Assembly: GCA_031372065.1 (NCBI GenBank)
Contig: JANMKN010000230.1
Location: forward strand, 1 to 22,381
DNA: 22,381 nucleotides
Source: Abditibacteriaceae bacterium
GTDB taxonomy: Bacteria; Armatimonadota; Abditibacteriia; Abditibacteriales; Abditibacteriaceae
Direction of reading: 5' to 3'
Below the pieces are notes generated by a model that was given only the letters and a program-made list of their open reading frames with translations, did no database searches and was not told where the DNA came from. Made by a program: the position numbers and the translations under genes. This document shows positions 1 through 6,467 of the stretch, in pieces. The number at the start of each line of letters is the position of its first letter. Position 1 is the first letter of the stretch.

Positions 1-30
1 TTGACATATCCAACAACATCAATCTACAAT
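1..30 (+). promoter_or_regulatory. Sigma70-type promoter for the leader/sulfate operon
   Basis: TTGACA (1-6), 18-bp spacer, TACAAT (25-30), oriented towards the leader ORF and sbp. Confidence 0.65.
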
Positions 31-171
31 CTTCCCGTTAATCCCACCTCTAAGGTGGTTTAACAAAGAAAAAGAGTCAGAATTTCCGGTTCAGCGCGTA
101 AAAATTGCCTAAAAAACGCTAAAGCGCGCTGACAATCGGACTTTAGACTATCCGCGATGCGGACAAAACAC

Positions 172-324
172 ATGAAACACGACCTGCGCCCTTTCAACAG
201 CACTATGACTTACGCCACCGGCACGTTTTGCCGCACGGCGATGTGTTGCTGCTGTTGTCTGAGGCCGACGGCGTGGTTGATGAAAATGCAAAATAGCGCA
301 TTCGCTGCTTTTTTCATCGCTTGA
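172..324 (+). CDS. Polycysteine leader peptide (putative cysteine attenuator uORF 1)
   Basis: Manual translation: MKHDLRPFNSTMTYATGTFCRTAMCCCCCLRPTAWLMKMQNSAFAAFFIA*. Five consecutive Cys codons at 244-258, one more Cys at 229-231, TGA at 322-324. Other in-frame ATGs lie at 157, 205 and 241, so the true start is uncertain. Sits upstream of the sulfate transporter. Confidence 0.8.
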   Translation: MKHDLRPFNSTMTYATGTFCRTAMCCCCCLRPTAWLMKMQNSAFAAFFIA

Positions 325-369
325 TCCTCCCACGTCCGTCGGCTGTTCCGGCGGATTTCGCTGTTTCTT
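264..369 (+). promoter_or_regulatory. Attenuator 1: competing antiterminator and terminator-like hairpin
   Basis: GCCGACGGCGTGG (264-276) pairs with CCACG-T-CCGTCGGC (330-343): 13 bp with one bulge. The competing hairpin TCCGTCGG-ctgtt-CCGGCGGA (335-355) is followed by TTTCGCTGTTTCTT, an imperfect U-tract. Both structures use 336-342. Confidence 0.7.
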
Positions 370-515
370 GACTTCCAAGAACGCAACGCAAACTCCTTCC
401 GCCCTTTATTACCTACCCCAGACCTGTGATTTAACGCCCGGTGCGAAATCACGACAGACCCGGCGATGAAAATTATCGCCCGCACGATTCAGATTTAAAT
501 TTCAACGGAGACACC

Positions 516-1613
516 ATGTCCAACTTTTTCAACAAAAATTCAAGCGAAGGCCCAACTCGCGTTCATCATTCGCGAGTGCGCTCACTCAAACTCATCGTGG
601 CCAGTTACGGCATTGCTTTGGCGGCGCTGACTTTCAACACACAAAAGCAAGATGCACTTTTGAAACCGGCTTGGGCGGCTGGCTCGCAAACACTGCTTAA
701 CGTCAGCTACGATCCAACCCGCGAGTTGTATCAGGATTTTAACAAGTCGTTTGCGGCCTACTGGAAGAAGAAAACCGGGGCCGATTTGACGGTGAAGCAG
801 TCGCACGGCGGTTCGGGCAAGCAAGCGCGTTCGGTAGTGGACGGCTTGGGCGCCGACGTGGTAACGCTGGCGCTTGGTTATGACATTGACGCCATCTCGG
901 ATGCCGGTTTGATCGCGCCGAACTGGCAGCGCCGCCTGCCAAACGGCAGCGCGCCTTACACCTCGACGATTGTTTTCTTGGTGCGCAAGGGCAATCCCAA
1001 GAAGATCAATGACTGGAATGACTTGGTGCGTCCCGGCGTGAAAGTGATTACGCCCAATCCCAAAACCTCAGGCGGCGCGCGCTGGAATTATTTGGCGGCG
1101 TGGGGCTATGCGTTGCAGCATAACAACAATAATCCGGCAGCGGCCAAGGCGTTCGTCACGAAATTGTATAAAAACGTGCCGGTTCTCGATTCGGGAGCGC
1201 GTGGCGCGACGACGACTTTCGTAGAGCGCGGCATCGGCGACGTGCTGCTGGCGTGGGAAAACGAAGCGGTGCTTTCGGTGAAGGAACTGGGCGTTGGCAA
1301 GTTTCAAATCGTGACGCCTTCGGTTAGCATTTTGGCCGAGCCGACAGTGTCCGTCGTGGACAAAGTGGCGGCCAAGCACGGCAACACGGCGGTGGCGCAG
1401 GCGTATTTGAAGTATCTTTACACACCTTACGGGCAGGAAATCGCGGCGCGCAATTATTATCGCCCGCGCTCGGCAGCCGTTAAGAAGCGCTACGCCAAGC
1501 AGTTCCCGAACGTGAAATTGTTCACCTTGGCGCAGTATTTTGGCAACTGGCGCAAGGCGCAGAAGACGCATTTTGCCGATGGCGGCGTCTTCGACCAGAT
1601 TTACCAGCCGTAA
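516..1613 (+). CDS. sbp: Sulfate ABC transporter substrate-binding protein
   Basis: Motifs [42 protein letters not shown] and [12 protein letters not shown]. Start moved to ATG 516 because GGAG lies at 507-510. Confidence 0.96.
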
Positions 1614-1619
1614 TTGCCC

Positions 1620-2031
1620 ATCCGCTGACCTGAACGTTCGATTTCTCGACTTGAACGGGCTATCCGCTAACCTGAAAGTTCGATCCGCTGACCTGAACGG
1701 GTCATCCGACGACCTGAATCTGCCTTCCGACGCCAGCGGATGACCCGTTCAGGTCGTCGGATCGAAGTCTCAGGCCGTCGGATCGAAGTTTCAGGTCACT
1801 GGATCGAAGTTTCAGGTCACTGGATCGAAGTTTCAGGGCGTCGGATCGAACTTTCGGGTCAGCGGATCGAAGTTTCAGGTCACTGGATCGAACTTTCAGG
1901 GCGTCGGATCGAAGTTTCAGGGCGGGAAATCGAAGATTCAGACGCCAAAAAGCAAAATTCAGATGCCAAAGTCACAAGTTCAGGTCAGAAAATGACCTTT
2001 TCAGGTTCAGGTAGAGATTCTTCAGGTTTTT
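1620..2031. repeat. Two inverted arrays of a 21-bp tandem repeat (fold-back element)
   Basis: About 5 units like ATCCGCTGACCTGAACGTTCG (1620-1724), then about 9 clear reverse-complement units like GGATCGAAGTTTCAGGTCACT (1738-1926) and about 5 degenerate units retaining TTCAG up to about 2031. Confidence 0.92.
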
Positions 2032-2034
2032 AGT

Positions 2035-2931
2035 ATGAAAACACAAGCTGCGAAGCGTGTATTGCCCGGTTTTGGATTGTCGCTGGGCTACACCTTGCTT
2101 TATTTGAGCCTCTTGGTGCTGATTCCACTGGCGATGTTGTTCTTCAAAACCGGCGAAATGGGTTGGGATCACTTCGTCAAAGCCGTGAGCGCGCCGCGCG
2201 CTGTGGCTTCCTATAAGTTGAGCATCGGCGCCTCGCTGATTGCGGCGACGATTAATGTGATTTTCGGCGTTTTGGTGGCGTGGGTTTTGGCGCGCTACAC
2301 CTTTCCGGGACGTGCTTTGATGGACGCCATCGTGGATTTGCCTTTTGCCTTGCCGACTTCGGTGGGCGGCATTGCTTTAACCACGCTTTACGCGCCGAAC
2401 GGCTGGATTGGGCAGTATCTTGAAAAATTCAACGGGCTTTCCGAGCATTTGACGTGGCTGCCGCTGGGACTGGGCGCTTATTTTAAGGAATGGGGCTTCA
2501 AAGGCGCTTATTCGCCGCTGGGCATTATCATCGCGCTGATTTTTATCGGTTTGCCGTTCGTAGTGCGCACTGTGCAGCCGGTTTTGCAAGAATTGGACGC
2601 CGAAATCGAAGAAGCCGCCGCCACTTTGGGCGCTGGGCGCTTAGCGATTTTCCGCCGCGTTTTGATGCCCCATCTCTTACCAGCCATTTTGACGGGTTTC
2701 ACGTTAGCTTTTGCCCGCGCATTGGGCGAATACGGCTCGGTGGTCTTTATTTCCGGCAATATGCCGATGAAAACCGAAATCACGCCGCTTTTAATCATTA
2801 CCAAGTTGGAGCAATACGATTATTCCGGCGCGACAGGCATCGCTGTGATGATGCTGCTCGGTTCATTTTCGCTGCTGCTTTTGATTAACGGCCTGCAATG
2901 GTGGAGCGCGCGGAGGTATGGCGCGGTTTAA
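2035..2931 (+). CDS. cysT: Sulfate ABC transporter permease CysT (CysU)
   Basis: [11 protein letters not shown]-terminus, [18 protein letters not shown] loop ([11 protein letters not shown]), [16 protein letters not shown]; operon position. Confidence 0.95.
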
Positions 2932-2943
2932 TCCCCAATTTCT

Positions 2944-3897
2944 ATGTCCGAACGAATTTTGACTCTACAACCGCAGGTGACGACGCTCGAAGGCGCGGTA
3001 GCCAAAGGCGACGCTTCCGCCTCGAAAAAGACGGCGCAGCCTGTCGCGACGCGGCGCGCGACGACCGAGCCGTGGCCCGTAAAACTGCTGCTGATTCTCA
3101 CCGCTGTGCTGTTTTTACTGGTCTTTTTGGTGGCGCCGCTGTCGCTGGTGTTCATCGAAGCCTTTAAAAAGGGTTTCGAGGTTTACAAAGCCTCTTTGGT
3201 TGACCCCGATGCGCTTTCGGCCATCAAATTGACGCTGCTCACGGCGGCGATTGCGGTGCCGCTCAACACGCTTTTTGGCCTTGCCGCTTCGTGGTTGATC
3301 GCGAACTTTCATTTCCGGGGCAAAAGCGTGCTGCTGACGCTGATTGACCTGCCTTTCGCGGTTTCACCGGTTATTTCGGGCCTGATTTTCATCTTGCTTT
3401 TCGGTGCGCGGGGCACGTTCGGGCCGTGGCTGGAAGCGCACGATTGGAAAATTGTTTTCGCCACGCCGGGCATTATCTTGGCGACGACGTTTGTCACTTT
3501 CCCGTTTGTGGCGCGCGAACTCATTTCGTTTATGCAGGCGCGCGGCACCGAAGAAGAAGAAGCGGCGGTGGTTTTGGGCGCCTCGTTTTGGCAAACCTTT
3601 CGCCGCGTGACGCTGCCCGCTATCAAGTGGCCGCTGCTTTACGGCGTGATTTTGTGCAACGCCCGCGCGATGGGCGAATTCGGCGCGGTTTCCGTCGTTT
3701 CGGGCCACATTCGCGGCGAAACCAACACCATTCCGCTGCAAGTGGAAATTCTTTATAACGAATACAATTTCACCGCTTCTTTCGCCGTCGCCTCGATTTT
3801 AGCGGGCTTGGCGATGGTGACGCTGGTGATTAAAGCCTTCGTGGAGCGCCAAGCGCATCGCGTGCTGGCCGAAGGCGCCAAACAGGAATTAACATGA
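2944..3897 (+). CDS. cysW: Sulfate ABC transporter permease CysW
   Basis: [60 protein letters not shown]. Confidence 0.95.
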
Positions 3898-4979
3898 CCA
3901 TTCACGTTGAAAATATCAGCAAACATTACGGCGCCTTTCGCGCCTTGGAAAATGTCAGTCTTGATGTGCCGCCCGGCGAACTGACGGCGTTGTTGGGGCC
4001 GTCGGGCAGCGGCAAAACCACGTTGCTGCGTATTATCGCCGGTTTGGAGTCGCCCGATAGCGGCAGAATTCGCTACGAAGGCAGCGATGTCACTAAAAGC
4101 GCCGTGCGCGAGCGTAACGTTGGCTTTGTCTTTCAACATTACGCGCTGTTCGGTCACATGACGATTTTCGAAAACATCGCTTTTGGCCTGCGTGTGCGCA
4201 AATGGAAAAAGGACGCCATCGAAAGCCGCGTGACGGAATTGCTCAAGCTGATTCAACTCGAAGGTTTGGGCAAGCGTTTTCCCTCGCAGTTATCGGGCGG
4301 ACAGCGACAGCGTGTCGCTTTGGCCCGCGCTTTGGCGCCGCAACCGCAGATTTTGCTGCTCGACGAGCCATTTGGCGCGCTGGATGCCAAAGTGCGACAA
4401 GAATTGCGCCGCTGGCTGCGCCGTTTGCACGATGAAATCGGCATGACCAGCCTGTTTGTGACGCACGATCAGGAAGAAGCCTTTGAAGTGGCTGACCGCG
4501 TAGTCGTGATGAACAAAGGCCACATCGAACAAAATGGCGCGCCGGATGATGTTTTCGCGCAACCAGCCAACGCGTTCGTCATGGACTTTTTGGGCAACGT
4601 GAATGTGTTTCATGGCCGCGCCGCAGCGGGCCAAGTGCAAGCGGGCGGGTTTGCCCTGCCCTTTCCCGAATATTCCCACAGCGACGCGCAACCCGCGACG
4701 GCTTATGTGCGCCCGCATGAAATGGATATTGATCGCAAGCCGCACGGCGAACAATCGGTTTCAGCCCGCATCGCGCGCATCAATCGCAGCGGGCCTTTGG
4801 TGAAGTTGTCTTTGGTGGGCGCCGACGATGAAACGCAGGTCAACGTCGAAATTGACCACGCGCGCGACCGCGAATTGAATCTGAATGTGGATGACACCGT
4901 TTATCTCTATCCGCATCATGTCCGCGTTTTTCTGCCGGAAAACAACGTGAAAAGCGCCACCCAAGTCGCTGCCAAATGA
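3894..4979 (+). CDS. cysA: Sulfate ABC transporter ATP-binding protein CysA
   Basis: Walker [23 protein letters not shown] signature, [24 protein letters not shown]-terminal TOBE-like region. ATGA overlap with the cysW stop. Confidence 0.95.
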
Positions 4980-4987
4980 GAATTTCC

Positions 4988-5086
4988 ATGACCACGCTTG
5001 CTTTTTCGCCCTTTAATCGCTGTCTGTGTTGCATCTGTTTGTGTTTGTGGCCGACCACAAGGCAAAGGAGTTCGCACAGGTTTTAA
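4988..5086 (+). CDS. Cys-rich leader peptide (putative cysteine attenuator uORF 2)
   Basis: ATG 4988, 8 nt after the cysA stop: MTTLAFSPFNRCLCCICLCLWPTTRQRSSHRF*. Five Cys in 8 codons (5021-5044), TAA at 5084-5086. Confidence 0.75.
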   Translation: MTTLAFSPFNRCLCCICLCLWPTTRQRSSHRF

Positions 5087-5127
5087 CCCACATCAAAGAC
5101 CTGTTAGAACATTGATTTCTTTCCTGC

Positions 5128-5169
5128 GCGCCGGCTGCTTTACAATAAACAGCAACCGGCGCCTTTTTT
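5128..5169 (+). terminator. Intrinsic terminator between uORF2 and the porin (attenuator 2)
   Basis: GCGCCGGCTGCT (5128-5139) / AGCAACCGGCGC (5151-5162), 11 of 12 pairs, then C-TTTTTT. The 5' arm can instead pair with GTGGCCGAC (5047-5055). Confidence 0.75.
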
Positions 5170-5234
5170 GTGCCGGACAGCTTACTTTCGCCGCAAAAAC
5201 CTAAAACTTGTCGTATCAGAAATCAGGAGAAACC

Positions 5235-6467
5235 ATGCACCATCAAGATCGCCCCGCGACACGGGGCCTCACAACTTTAGCCGCGCTGGGCCTTTTTAAC
5301 GTAGCATTACCCGCGCAGGCACAACAAAGCGAAGTCGAGGCCTTGCGCGCCATCATCGGTGACCTTCAGGCCCGTTTGAGCAAACTCGAAGAAGCACAAA
5401 GCAGCGCCGCTGCTGCCGCCAAAACCGCACCCAAAACGGTCACCGCCAAAAGTGCGCCCATCACGGTTTCTGGCAATTTCCAGATTCATGGCTTGGCCTA
5501 TTTCAATCAAAAAGGGCCGGGCGCGAAAGTGCCGGACACTTTCCGCCTGCGCCGCAGCGACATTCGCCTGACCGCGCAAATCACGCCCAAAATTGTGGGC
5601 ACGGTGCAACTTGACCCGGCGAAAAGCCTCAACTTGAACGCGTCGGGCACCGCCATCAACCAAACCGGCAACGTATTACAAGAGTTGACTTTGATTTATC
5701 AGTTGCAAAAGTCGGCCAAAGGCGCCAATTACATAGATGTCGGCCAGTTCAAGATTCCCATCGGTTACGAAGGCGACCTTTTGGCATCATCAGCCATTCC
5801 CAATGTTGAACGCGCCCTGCTCTTCACGCAGCGCGATCCCTTTGGCGGCGGCTATGGCGACATCCGCGAAACCGGCGCGCGATTGCGCGGCACTTCGGGC
5901 GAATTCGGTTATGATCTGGGCATTTTCAACGGCTTCGGCGACCGCCAAAACGCTTTGGCGACCAGCGATCAAAAAGCGGTCATCGGGCGCTTGATTTACA
6001 CCCCGAAATCGCTGAAAAATGCCCTGCAACTCGGCCTCAGCGGCGGCACCGGCAGTCCCGGCAACACCAGCCGCGACATCGTAAACGCTTTTGCGGTTTA
6101 CAAGAAAAGCAAACTGACGCTGCAATCGGAATATCTCGACGGCAAAACGCAAGGTTTGTTGGGCGCGCCGCCTGCCGCCACAACGCGTGACGTGAAAGGC
6201 TATTACGGCCACGTCGGTTATTTCTTCGCGCCGAAACTGGAAGGTATCGCGCGCTACGATTATTTCAACACAGACAAAAACGTCGCGAACGCCGACGCGA
6301 CCGACATCACGTTGGGCGCCAATTATTACATCAAGGGCAACAACGCCAAAATCCAGTTGAATCTGGTGCGTCGCGACGGCAATCCTGCCGCCAAAACCGG
6401 CAACGGCGCTGGCGATTTGCGCAATGACCGCTACGAACTGCGCACCAATTTCCAAGTCGCCTTTTAA
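5235..6467 (+). CDS. OprO/OprP-like anion-selective outer-membrane porin, probably for sulfate
   Basis: Signal peptide ending AQA, short N-terminal coiled coil, FRLRR, GQFKIPIGYE and VER motifs of porin O/P, amphipathic beta strands, C-terminal Phe. AGGAG precedes ATG 5235. Confidence 0.8.
   Translation: MHHQDRPATRGLTTLAALGLFNVALPAQAQQSEVEALRAIIGDLQARLSKLEEAQSSAAAAAKTAPKTVTAKSAPITVSGNFQIHGLAYFNQKGPGAKVPDTFRLRRSDIRLTAQITPKIVGTVQLDPAKSLNLNASGTAINQTGNVLQELTLIYQLQKSAKGANYIDVGQFKIPIGYEGDLLASSAIPNVERALLFTQRDPFGGGYGDIRETGARLRGTSGEFGYDLGIFNGFGDRQNALATSDQKAVIGRLIYTPKSLKNALQLGLSGGTGSPGNTSRDIVNAFAVYKKSKLTLQSEYLDGKTQGLLGAPPAATTRDVKGYYGHVGYFFAPKLEGIARYDYFNTDKNVANADATDITLGANYYIKGNNAKIQLNLVRRDGNPAAKTGNGAGDLRNDRYELRTNFQVAF

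Follow-up and report, generated by a model that had tools for sequence, protein, structure and literature searches.

Leader-peptide attenuation is a textbook mechanism, and its classical examples are the trpL leader of E. coli, the hisL leader of Salmonella, and the leu, thr, ilv and pheA leaders. Cysteine is so far the odd one out among leader-peptide attenuators. The mechanism of the classical amino-acid-operon attenuators is summarised in a preprint by Canestrari et al. (bioRxiv 10.1101/834739), the consulted part of which also notes that no case of uORF-mediated attenuation was on record for cysteine. That part of the preprint presents mycobacterial Ms5788A and its relatives as leaderless polycysteine sORFs. 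Candidate cys leader peptides upstream of cys and cbs genes of Actinobacteria were reported by Seliverstov et al. (2005; PMC1262725) on the basis of comparative genomics. In the report of Naville and Gautheret (2010; PMC2965389), the word "cysteine" appears solely in the reference list. Within the open literature that we searched, the Cys leader ORFs found are from Actinobacteria only and either lack terminators or act on translation. The same search turned up neither a terminator-type Cys attenuator nor any RNA regulation in Abditibacteriota.

We analyzed a stretch of 22,381 nucleotides from an Abditibacteriaceae bacterium (GenBank assembly GCA_031372065.1, contig JANMKN010000230.1), referred to here as the window, in which a leader of the type considered below precedes the sulfate ABC transporter genes sbp-cysTWA. 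We consider it likely that this leader is a ribosome-mediated transcription attenuator of the trp/his type that senses charged tRNA-Cys. What we observe are sequence features, their conservation, covariation in the antiterminator, the overlap between the hairpins, and the sulfur-related genes downstream; from these we infer the transcription start site (TSS), translation of the leader, ribosome stalling, termination, and a response to cysteine. Such a leader would be a complete terminator/antiterminator version of a cysteine attenuator, in the barely studied phylum Abditibacteriota. All features described here lie on the forward (+) strand. The gene sbp, for the substrate-binding protein of the transporter, occupies 516..1613 (NF008022, E 4.8e-165) and is followed at 2035..4979 by cysT (2035-2931), cysW (2944-3897) and cysA (3894-4979), and at 5235..6467 by a gene of the phosphate-selective porin O/P family (PF07396, E 4.3e-20).

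The contig begins exactly at a promoter-like site (1..30) that consists of TTGACA at 1-6, an 18-nt spacer, and TACAAT at 25-30, with 11 of 12 matches, and that predicts a TSS near position 37. The sequence TTGAC(A/G)...TA(C/A)AAT is likewise found upstream of sbp in relatives. The position of this conserved promoter, ahead of the leader ORF, argues against a TSS beyond position 324, the TSS itself being a predicted one. Just inside the predicted transcript is a promoter-proximal dyad, AATCCCACC-N5-GGTGGTTTAA, at 40..63, which forms a 6-bp RNA hairpin at 44-58 (-8.1 kcal/mol). Its consensus, AAATCC(C/T)AC...GGT(G/A)G..TT, is present in 16 of 16 sbp leaders, including those that have no Cys ORF, and the dyad could be an operator or a 5' stem-loop.

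The original prediction described an unlisted ORF with Cys codons within 229-258 and a stop at 322-324, and the window does contain it. This leader ORF (172..324), as judged from its sequence and translation, has 50 codons (MKHDLRPFNSTMTYATGTFCRTAMCCCCCLRPTAWLMKMQNSAFAAFFIA), ends in the TGA at 322-324, and is presumed to be translated in vivo. An upstream in-frame ATG at position 157 would give a leader ORF of 55 codons; the frame is open throughout 157..324 and translates as ...TFCRTAMCCCCCLRPTAW...FFIA*. The ATG at 172 and the CGGACAA that precedes it are conserved in both same-genus relatives that have the leader. Most copies of the element have a weak Shine-Dalgarno-like sequence ahead of the leader ORF, or none at all, and in this genus it amounts only to GGA. 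Cysteine accounts for 6 of the 50 codons, five of them consecutive. The putative regulatory codons are TGC at 229-231 and TGT TGC TGC TGT TGT at 244-258. Runs of at least five Cys codons are found only 5 times in all six frames of the whole 6.14-Mb genome, and 244-258 is the sole intergenic one. Each of the remaining four falls within a long ORF or antisense to one and was set aside.

When we folded the RNA of 225-380, the minimum-energy structure paired 263-276 with 330-344 through 14 base pairs, including G263-U344. The 5' arm of this predicted antiterminator (region 2, hereafter arm 2; 263..276) lies within the leader ORF and starts after a gap of 4 nt from the last Cys codon. Its 3' arm (region 3; 330..344), supported by both the fold and covariation, has T335 bulged. 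A nested hairpin, 278-286/311-319 (278..319; -11.8 kcal/mol), joins the two arms. In the folds, masking of arm 2 allows a terminator hairpin to form from 334-342 and 348-356 (334..356), with its loop at 343-347; it has 9 pairs and a folding energy of -14.1 kcal/mol, and its 5' half, 334-342, is the 9-nt stretch that it has in common with the 3' arm of the antiterminator. The U-rich tail that follows (TTCGCTGTTTCTTG, 357..370) is interrupted. Within 357-369, 8 of the 13 bases are T and the longest run is 3, so that the tail fails a strict test of at least 4 consecutive T. Each of these elements had been proposed beforehand with slightly different limits, namely a pairing of 264-276 with 330-343, an inner stem of 279-286 with 311-318, a GC hairpin at 335-355 that re-uses the 3' arm, and an imperfect U-tract, and each was recovered in our folds. 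The antiterminator at 259-346 alone has a folding energy of -36.4 kcal/mol. The complete fold of 225-380 has one of -54.8 kcal/mol (z -2.29), which 3 of 200 shuffled sequences match, and these fold statistics for the single window sequence are only moderate. Support against a chance structure comes from its being conserved and covarying in relatives, as described below. A generic terminator scan returned 5 sites, compared with 3.9 expected.

When ribosome footprints were masked and the entire leader was folded at equilibrium, irrelevant long-range pairs swamped the result, and we turned to a procedure in which only the RNA 3' of the ribosome is folded. RNA that is free from position 260 or 266 onward forms the antiterminator, and RNA that is free from 272 or 298 onward forms the terminator hairpin. 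In this procedure arm 2 would be partly covered by a ribosome stalled at the final Cys codon, and induction would thus depend on stalling at the early codons. We found no protector or pause hairpin of the 1:2 type: the RNA of 172-262 folds on itself without pairing to the arm at 263-276. An untranslated leader would thus be read through by default. In the folds, the partner of the Cys run (244-258) is 195-202 and not the region before 516. In an Rfam scan of window positions 1-2200 at E values up to 10, no family fits, the only hits being COG2908 at E 9.4 (221-246) and miRNA-like matches. A repeat array at 1660-1784 attracts miRNA-like matches in that scan.

We then compared the leader with those of 27 family genomes, the family set being relatives titled Abditibacteriaceae. 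The sbp gene is present in 17 of the 27, with readable upstream DNA in 16 of these. A Cys-rich ORF with the same arms lies ahead of sbp in 11 of the 16 readable loci, from 5 genera, and in all 11 the Cys codons are directly 5' of an arm resembling GCCGGCGG, whose distal pairing partner resembles CCGCCGGC. A search for conserved Cys runs upstream of sbp in relatives is what the original prediction had called for. In five family genomes, sbp lies behind a different leader. In a MAFFT alignment of the 11 leaders, the 3' arms of two of them, G007 and G013, fell in the wrong place, so a covariance model was built from the remaining 9. A search with this model located 8 further copies ahead of other genes: two precede sulfatase genes (PF00884), four precede prepilin-like genes, of which the two that were scanned carry N_methyl and DUF1559, and two precede genes without known function. 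At the DNA level, a search of the leader against 60 relatives found only two same-genus genomes that match beyond chance; short Cys-run matches in L005, L007, L014 and L021 turned out to fall within long ORFs that are read in a different frame. The model found no such element outside the family in a 150-genome sample of the phylum. Model matches outside the family in L061 and L062, and one within it in L073, are inside long ORFs and were rejected. Among 80 sbp loci from many phyla, the 4 Abditibacteriaceae records alone have ORFs of the family type; a further 35 loci showed a frame with at least 3 Cys in 8 residues, which we judged by eye to be out-of-frame or GC-rich noise.

For covariation, copies with E values up to 0.001 were aligned, giving 18 copies; an earlier version of the alignment had included 3 reverse-strand matches of the palindromic stem, and the threshold also excludes from the count the sbp leader of G013, a genuine copy with a weak score (E 0.011). 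Eight of the 14 antiterminator pairs have changed on both sides, compared with 3.2 ± 1.2 in shuffled alignments, and 0 of 500 shuffles reach 8, although the alignment was fitted to the model and its sequences are related, which overstates their independence. Paired cells make up 86.5% of the total across the 18 copies, versus 81.8 ± 0.9 in the shuffles, and sliding the partners by 1-3 columns leaves 27-55% paired. The register between codons and arm is equally regular. Every copy (18 of 18) has a gap of 4 nt between the last Cys codon and the 5' arm, and in each a frame that begins with ATG and has 30-60 codons stays open through both the Cys cluster and the 5' arm, with the Cys cluster in the same place each time. 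The leader peptides have 2-9 Cys each, and together 86 of their 802 residues (10.7%) are Cys, versus 1.03% in the long ORFs of the genome. Over the 15 codons up to the last Cys codon, there are 73 Cys in frame versus 26 and 10 in the other two frames. The nested hairpin is variable in sequence and length in the folds of relatives, and the distance from the 5' arm on to the stop codon ranges from 0 to 54 nt among the copies. A script that tried only hairpins starting within the 3' arm found the lowest-energy enclosing one to have 5-16 nt in common with that arm in every copy (18 of 18). At least four consecutive T are present within 8 nt of the hairpin in 10 of 18 copies by a strict script and in 13 of 18 by reading of the folds; the interrupted tract of the window (TTCGCTGTTTCTT) and 7 other copies fail the strict script. 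The hairpin of G002 is weak (-6.1 kcal/mol), and the sbp leader of G013 has no clear terminator.

The mechanism that we propose for the window would operate as follows. Transcription would begin at approximately position 37, and a ribosome would load at the ATG at 172. When Cys-tRNA is scarce, this ribosome would stall early in the run, at 244-252, with its leading edge short of 263, which would leave 263-276 free to pair with 330-344 as the latter emerges, aided by the nested hairpin at 278-319. Formation of the antiterminator would block the terminator and allow RNA polymerase to continue into sbp-cysTWA. With ample cysteine, the ribosome would cross 263-276 toward the stop at 322-324. The segment 330-344, now without its partner, would instead pair with 348-356 to give the terminator hairpin, and RNA polymerase would terminate or pause at the U-rich tail, at approximately 357-370. 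The trp/his-type stalling logic put forward in the original prediction thus gains support from the recurrence of the element (11 of 16 sbp leaders and 8 other leaders), from the compensatory changes, and from the T-runs. Its account of the ribosome at the stop codon holds in part: crossing arm 2 would free the terminator, but parking at the stop, with the RNA covered to 334, is not general. Given that the stop lies 0-54 nt past the arm, the general rule would be that a ribosome that passes the Cys codons translates across arm 2.

This arrangement resembles trpL- and hisL-type leaders in several respects. There is a short leader ORF in which codons for the amino acid provided by the pathway cluster together, the 5' arm of the antiterminator lies just 3' of the regulatory codons, the 5' half of the putative terminator is part of the 3' arm of the antiterminator, and stalling is predicted to result in read-through. 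Unlike in those leaders, the amino acid sensed here would be cysteine, and the targets are uptake and scavenging genes rather than a biosynthetic operon. The ORF is also long (30-60 codons) and continues through arm 2, and the 1:2 protector or pause hairpin, which is typical of trp but not universal, is lacking. There is no sequence similarity to the classical leaders and no Rfam match, and the lineage, Abditibacteriota, is a different one.

With the Ms5788A type, as described in the consulted part of the preprint (10.1101/834739), the element shares Cys-codon runs in a short upstream ORF, here the putative sensor of cysteine supply, and a distribution over several loci per genome that amounts to a regulon of sulfur or cysteine genes. 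The original prediction had pointed to polycysteine attenuators as known in mycobacteria and other Actinobacteria. Sensors made of Cys-run sORFs are indeed published, but the mycobacterial device, according to that part of the preprint, is leaderless, pairs its Cys tract with the Shine-Dalgarno sequence of the next gene, and acts on translation without a terminator. The Cys leader of the Abditibacteriaceae is therefore not the mycobacterial device. In the element described here, the ATG at 172 follows the predicted TSS by ~135 nt, so the ORF would not be leaderless, a long distance separates the Cys run from the start of sbp, and there is a conserved putative antiterminator/terminator pair with T-runs. 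The actinobacterial leaders of PMC1262725 are likewise short ORFs with Cys-codon runs predicted by comparative genomics. In the consulted part of that paper, however, the Cys runs adjoin the stop codon, no conserved hairpins or terminators accompany them, and Rho is invoked, whereas in the family described here both hairpins are conserved and covarying.

Several other explanations share parts of this evidence. The same Cys-codon sensor could act through a hairpin at 334-356 that is a pause site, that depends on Rho or another factor, or that gives leaky regulation. We regard this as unlikely. The absence of any run of more than 3 T in the tail at 357-369 and the failure of both same-genus copies in the strict T-run test are in its favor, and Rho was proposed for the terminator-less actinobacterial cys leaders in the consulted part of Seliverstov et al. 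(2005; PMC1262725); both orthologous and paralogous copies in other genera, however, have textbook terminators with T6 to T9, the second element of the window (described below) has T6, and 8 T in 13 bases may still allow termination. Beyond the tail, there are 150 nt more of leader (370-515), with predicted hairpins, before sbp, and the only experimentally studied Cys leader ORFs, as far as the consulted part of 10.1101/834739 goes, act on translation. Control of translation or mRNA stability as in mycobacteria, with the sbp ribosome-binding site exposed or hidden or decay altered and no premature termination, is nevertheless very unlikely in this family. The Cys run is ~260 nt from the sbp Shine-Dalgarno sequence, with which nothing pairs in the folds; conservation resides in the arm pair and in the hairpin with its T-run, not near the start codon; and the distance from terminator to gene start is variable.

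The remaining two explanations treat the codons or the RNA structure as incidental. With the frame open across the arm in 18 of 18 copies, Cys codons concentrated in that frame (73 against 26 and 10), and TGT and TGC interchanging while the amino acid is kept, a ligand- or protein-binding RNA switch to which the reading frame and its Cys codons are irrelevant is less likely still. The region between the arms, being unconserved in length and sequence, offers no aptamer-like core, and there is no match in Rfam. Such a switch would nonetheless fit a long-range helix that is the best conserved feature and that covaries, a peptide motif, (R/W)-P-x-x-W, that merely translates the GC-rich arm, and the weak Shine-Dalgarno signals. 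Least likely of all, in our estimation, is that the short ORF, cotranscribed with the sulfur genes, yields a small, Cys-rich protein with a function of its own, such as metal or sulfur binding, and that the hairpins are ordinary transcript-end or processing signals. A content of 2-9 Cys and the hydrophobic N-termini of some peptides, which resemble those of small membrane proteins, would suit this explanation, but between gene contexts the peptides cannot be aligned beyond the Cys cluster and the arm-encoded motif, compensatory stem changes alter residues (e.g., Ala to Thr), the number of Cys falls to 2 in some copies, and a Cys-rich product would be odd beside sulfur-stripped proteins.

Returning to the reading as a cysteine-sensing transcription attenuator, we asked what genes the element accompanies. 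Sulfate uptake feeds cysteine synthesis, and sbp-cysTWA, the sulfatase genes and the porin O/P-family gene all serve cysteine supply. The encoded proteins are themselves poor in sulfur: Sbp (365 residues), the porin (410 residues) and two DUF1559 proteins behind copies of the element (271 residues each) are all free of Cys, with 1 Met apiece. To judge from composition, the products under the element look like sulfur-starvation proteins. A small regulon with covariation support points to sulfur scavenging and not to biosynthesis, and a ribosome-based sensor tied to sulfur-depleted proteins would provide a testable handle on gene regulation in Abditibacteriota. A broader and more tentative reading, to which we give somewhat less than even credence, is that one modular, ribosome-read Cys sensor has been copied before at least four gene classes and constitutes the main sulfur-starvation switch of the lineage. 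The four classes would be the sulfate ABC transporter, the sulfatases, the in-operon anion porin, and the prepilin-like DUF1559 proteins, whose only sulfur is in the initiator Met. If this is true, an RNA- and ribosome-based regulon would fill the role that CysB-type transcription factors fill elsewhere, and that regulon would include a swap of cell-surface pseudopilins for sulfur-free versions.

The porin gene is preceded by a second, weaker element. A second Cys-rich short ORF (4976..5086) has an ATG that overlaps the cysA stop codon, and a gap of 4 nt separates its last Cys codon from a weak arm at 5049-5062. Within the window, the family model ranks this element second among its matches (5036-5174; 14.4 bits, E 0.03). 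It is followed by a second putative terminator (5128..5169), in which a hairpin of 5128-5139 with 5151-5162 precedes a C and T6 (5164-5169). A homologue of this element is present in G001, where it likewise lies between cysA and the porin gene. Besides the sbp leader, it was the only element to emerge from a scan of the genome for Cys-rich short frames; as a screen, that scan was far too noisy, with 986 short frames having at least 4 Cys in 8 residues. The source organism is known solely as a metagenome assembly, and the sequencing runs listed as containing the stretch include no RNA run and comprise four DNA runs of one freshwater-sediment study.

The stretch under study comprises the initial 22,381 nt of a contig in a 6.14-Mb, 410-contig assembly from the family Abditibacteriaceae, which NCBI taxonomy places in the phylum Abditibacteriota. 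On its forward strand, the frame 157..324 is open and encodes a peptide containing TFCRTAMCCCCCLRPTAW and ending in FFIA, with a TGC codon at 229-231, five Cys codons in a row at 244-258, and a TGA stop at 322-324. Since the ATG at 172 and the CGGACAA that precedes it are kept in both same-genus genomes that have the leader, the ORF probably spans 172-324 (50 codons). Such a Cys run is rare: a six-frame translation of the whole genome contains five, and the four besides this one lie inside or antisense to long ORFs. In the minimum-energy fold of 225-380, bases 263-276 pair with 330-344 through 14 pairs with T335 bulged, and this helix encloses a hairpin at 278-286/311-319. The computed energy of this antiterminator, nested hairpin included, is -36.4 kcal/mol. 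The alternative to the long-range pairing is a GC hairpin, 334-342/348-356 (-14.1 kcal/mol), followed at 357-369 by an imperfect U-tract with 8 T among 13 bases and no run longer than 3. The Cys-rich ORF, both pairings, the inner stem and the imperfect tail thus all agree with the original prediction. Taken alone, the window leader is only moderately unusual (fold z-score of -2.29), and a generic terminator scan of the window gave no enrichment.

The original prediction read this architecture as attenuation of the trp/his type. We modelled the position of a ribosome by folding only the RNA that lies 3' of it. When the ribosome is placed on the first Cys codon of the run, or on the third, the RNA is free from 260 or 266 and folds into the antiterminator; when it is placed at the last Cys codon or beyond, the RNA is free just from 272 or 298 and folds into the terminator hairpin. 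These folds indicate that a shortage of Cys-tRNA would give read-through, by way of a ribosome stalled early in the Cys run and formation of the antiterminator, and that an ample supply would give termination, with the ribosome covering the antiterminator 5' arm while the two halves of the terminator hairpin (regions 3 and 4) are made. A hairpin corresponding to the 1:2 protector of trp leaders is absent in folds of the window leader, so a leader left untranslated would default to read-through. With some refinements, the trp/his-type reading is supported by conservation, covariation and the ribosome-position folds, and the leader is predicted to be a complete Cys-specific terminator/antiterminator attenuator whose functional steps we infer.

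We looked for the leader ahead of sbp in relatives. At an E-value of up to 1e-40, sbp is present in 17 of the 27 family genomes, a count that includes the genome of the window; the copy in G026 is truncated where its contig ends, leaving 16 readable upstream regions. Nine of these have an ORF with at least three Cys in 8 residues, located 250-390 nt ahead of the conserved SYDPTR motif of Sbp, and two more (G024 and G014) have a homologous ORF with just CC, of sequence MMRGCCRPPAAR. In all 11 leaders, the Cys codons are followed directly by an arm of consensus GGCCGGCGGCGTGG, which pairs with a distal partner resembling CCACGCCGCCGGC. At single positions the arms show compensatory exchanges, for instance GCCGACGG/CCGTCGGC in the window versus GCCGGCGG/CCGCCGGC in G001, GCCGGAGG/CCTCCGGC in G020 and GCCAGCGG/CGCTGGC in G005.

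The remaining five sbp leaders, all from genus g2, have no Cys ORF of this type and carry instead a different short covarying hairpin. Its copies are at L039:2584-2664, L045:2589-2668 and L046:2530-2609 (minus strand) and at L040:1280-1359 and L041:1265-1344. This hairpin spans about 45 nt, UCCGGCAAAGGCGCCGC...GCGAAGGGCCGGA, with a conserved asymmetric internal loop and compensatory changes in 5 of 14 pairs. An Rfam search with it returned no match, and it may represent an undescribed cis-regulatory RNA for the sbp operon. A response-regulator gene lies divergent and upstream in the g2 sbp loci.

A covariance model built from 9 sbp leaders was used to search the 27 family genomes and a sample of 150 genomes from the phylum, as the resource defines it. 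This yielded eight copies beyond the sbp leaders, every one of which has a promoter-like site of its own as well as a Cys-rich ORF. Two stand ahead of sulfatase genes (G013 and G011; PF00884, E about 1e-52), four ahead of prepilin-like genes (G020, G026, G005 and G011), and two ahead of genes of unknown function (G012 and G023, the last with an OsmC-like gene farther downstream). Two of the prepilin-like proteins were scanned and contain N_methyl and DUF1559 domains, DUF1559 falling below the Pfam cut-off in one; the other two share the N-terminal GFTLIELLVV. Three additional matches lie inside long ORFs and were counted false. Outside the family, no credible copy was found in the 150-genome sample or in the sbp loci of other lineages that were searched. 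The element appears to have multiplied to form a small regulon for sulfur scavenging in this phylum, which has been little studied.

For structure tests, 18 copies were aligned under guidance of the model, leaving out the weak G013 sbp leader and three reverse-strand matches. Standard pairs occupy 86.5% of cells, and pairing falls to 27-55% when partners are shifted by 1-3 columns. Both-sided changes occur in 8 of 14 pairs, a count and a covariation score reached by none of 500 column shuffles, in an alignment that is fitted to the model and made of related copies. In all 18, the lowest-energy enclosing hairpin overlaps the antiterminator 3' arm by 5-16 nt, as determined with a script that tried only hairpins beginning within that arm. 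A run of at least four T within 8 nt of the hairpin was counted in 10 copies by the script and in 13 by reading the folds; the script count is lower because, for three copies, its hairpin absorbed some of the T-run or it chose a longer alternative. The interrupted tails include those of the window copy and its two same-genus orthologues.

The same 18 copies all have an ATG-started frame of 30-60 codons that stays open across the Cys cluster and the 5' arm, which begins exactly 4 nt from the last Cys codon. Cys accounts for 86 of 802 leader residues (10.7%), versus 1.03% in long ORFs of the window's genome, and the 15 codons up to the last Cys codon hold 73 Cys in frame versus 26 and 10 when read in the two alternative frames. 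The stop codon lies 0 to 54 nt beyond the arm. Most copies have weak Shine-Dalgarno-like signals, which we consider the main weakness of the case for translation.

The window element has the logic and anatomy of classical trp/his-type attenuators. It differs from the leaderless polycysteine ORFs of mycobacteria, which act translationally through pairing of the Cys tract with the Shine-Dalgarno region of the next gene (10.1101/834739). There, Canestrari et al. describe uORF-mediated attenuation for cysteine as previously undescribed (10.1101/834739). It also differs from the cys leader peptides that Seliverstov et al. (2005) predicted in Actinobacteria, which they describe as "without obvious terminators" (PMC1262725). 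A 2026 paper likewise speaks of translational attenuation (PMC13236596). The full-text searchable literature yielded neither a terminator-type Cys attenuator elsewhere nor any account of RNA-based regulation in Abditibacteriota.

Scanning the genome that the window comes from, we located a second Cys-rich ORF of 36 codons at 4976-5086 (forward strand), the ATG of which overlaps the cysA stop. Its Cys pattern is CLCCICLC, then LWPTT, and it is followed on the same strand by a textbook-type terminator, a hairpin at 5128-5162 and then T6 (to 5169), directly ahead of a phosphate-selective porin O/P-family gene. This element is the second-best model match in the window (E of 0.03, which is weak), and its own antiterminator is weak; the G001 homologue in the same location is clearer, with a 6+6-bp antiterminator. 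We count it as a ninth, weaker copy inside the sbp-cysTWA operon, and it may gate read-through from cysA to the porin gene.

A motif scan placed a promoter-like site, TTGACA-18-TACAAT, at the extreme contig start on the forward strand; next comes a dyad or hairpin at 40-63. The sbp leaders of relatives keep both features, so the transcript is predicted to start well ahead of the leader ORF. The first base of the contig is the first base of the -35 hexamer (window 1); in relatives a divergent response-regulator gene lies immediately upstream of this promoter, and it is missing in the window only because of the contig break. In all 16 sbp leaders (window 40-63; also L032-L046), including those that have no Cys ORF, the dyad AAATCC(C/T)ACC-N5-7-GGT(G/A)G..TT stands immediately 3' of the conserved promoter. 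Its half-sites both vary (CCCACC/GGTGGG versus CCTAC/GTAGG). The dyad may serve as an operator bound by a sulfur regulator, or as a stem-loop that stabilises the 5' end. At the corresponding place, the leaders that precede other gene classes carry 5' hairpins unrelated to it.

Strong NCBIfam matches identify sbp at 516-1613 and cysT, cysW and cysA downstream of it, all on the forward strand. Proteins produced in sulfur starvation are often sulfur-poor in composition. Sbp (365 residues), the porin (5235-6467; 410 residues) and two attenuator-linked DUF1559 prepilin-like proteins (L063:624-1436, minus strand, and L069:1689-2501; 271 residues each) all have no Cys and one Met, the initiator, against a genome average of about 1.0% Cys and 1.9% Met. 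The sulfatases behind the leaders are not poor in sulfur. The near absence of sulfur from Sbp, the porin and the DUF1559 proteins is an independent physiological hint, and sparing of sulfur to this extreme suggests a role for the prepilin-like genes as replacements, in sulfur starvation, for paralogues containing sulfur.

Tandem repeats of 21 nt (window 1618-1941) occupy the 420 nt that separate sbp from cysT. About three units run one way (1647-1718) and 8-9 the opposite way (1748-1941), and jointly they form a large inverted-repeat array. This array explains miRNA-like Rfam matches at 1660-1784. Relatives have a second sbp paralogue in its place.
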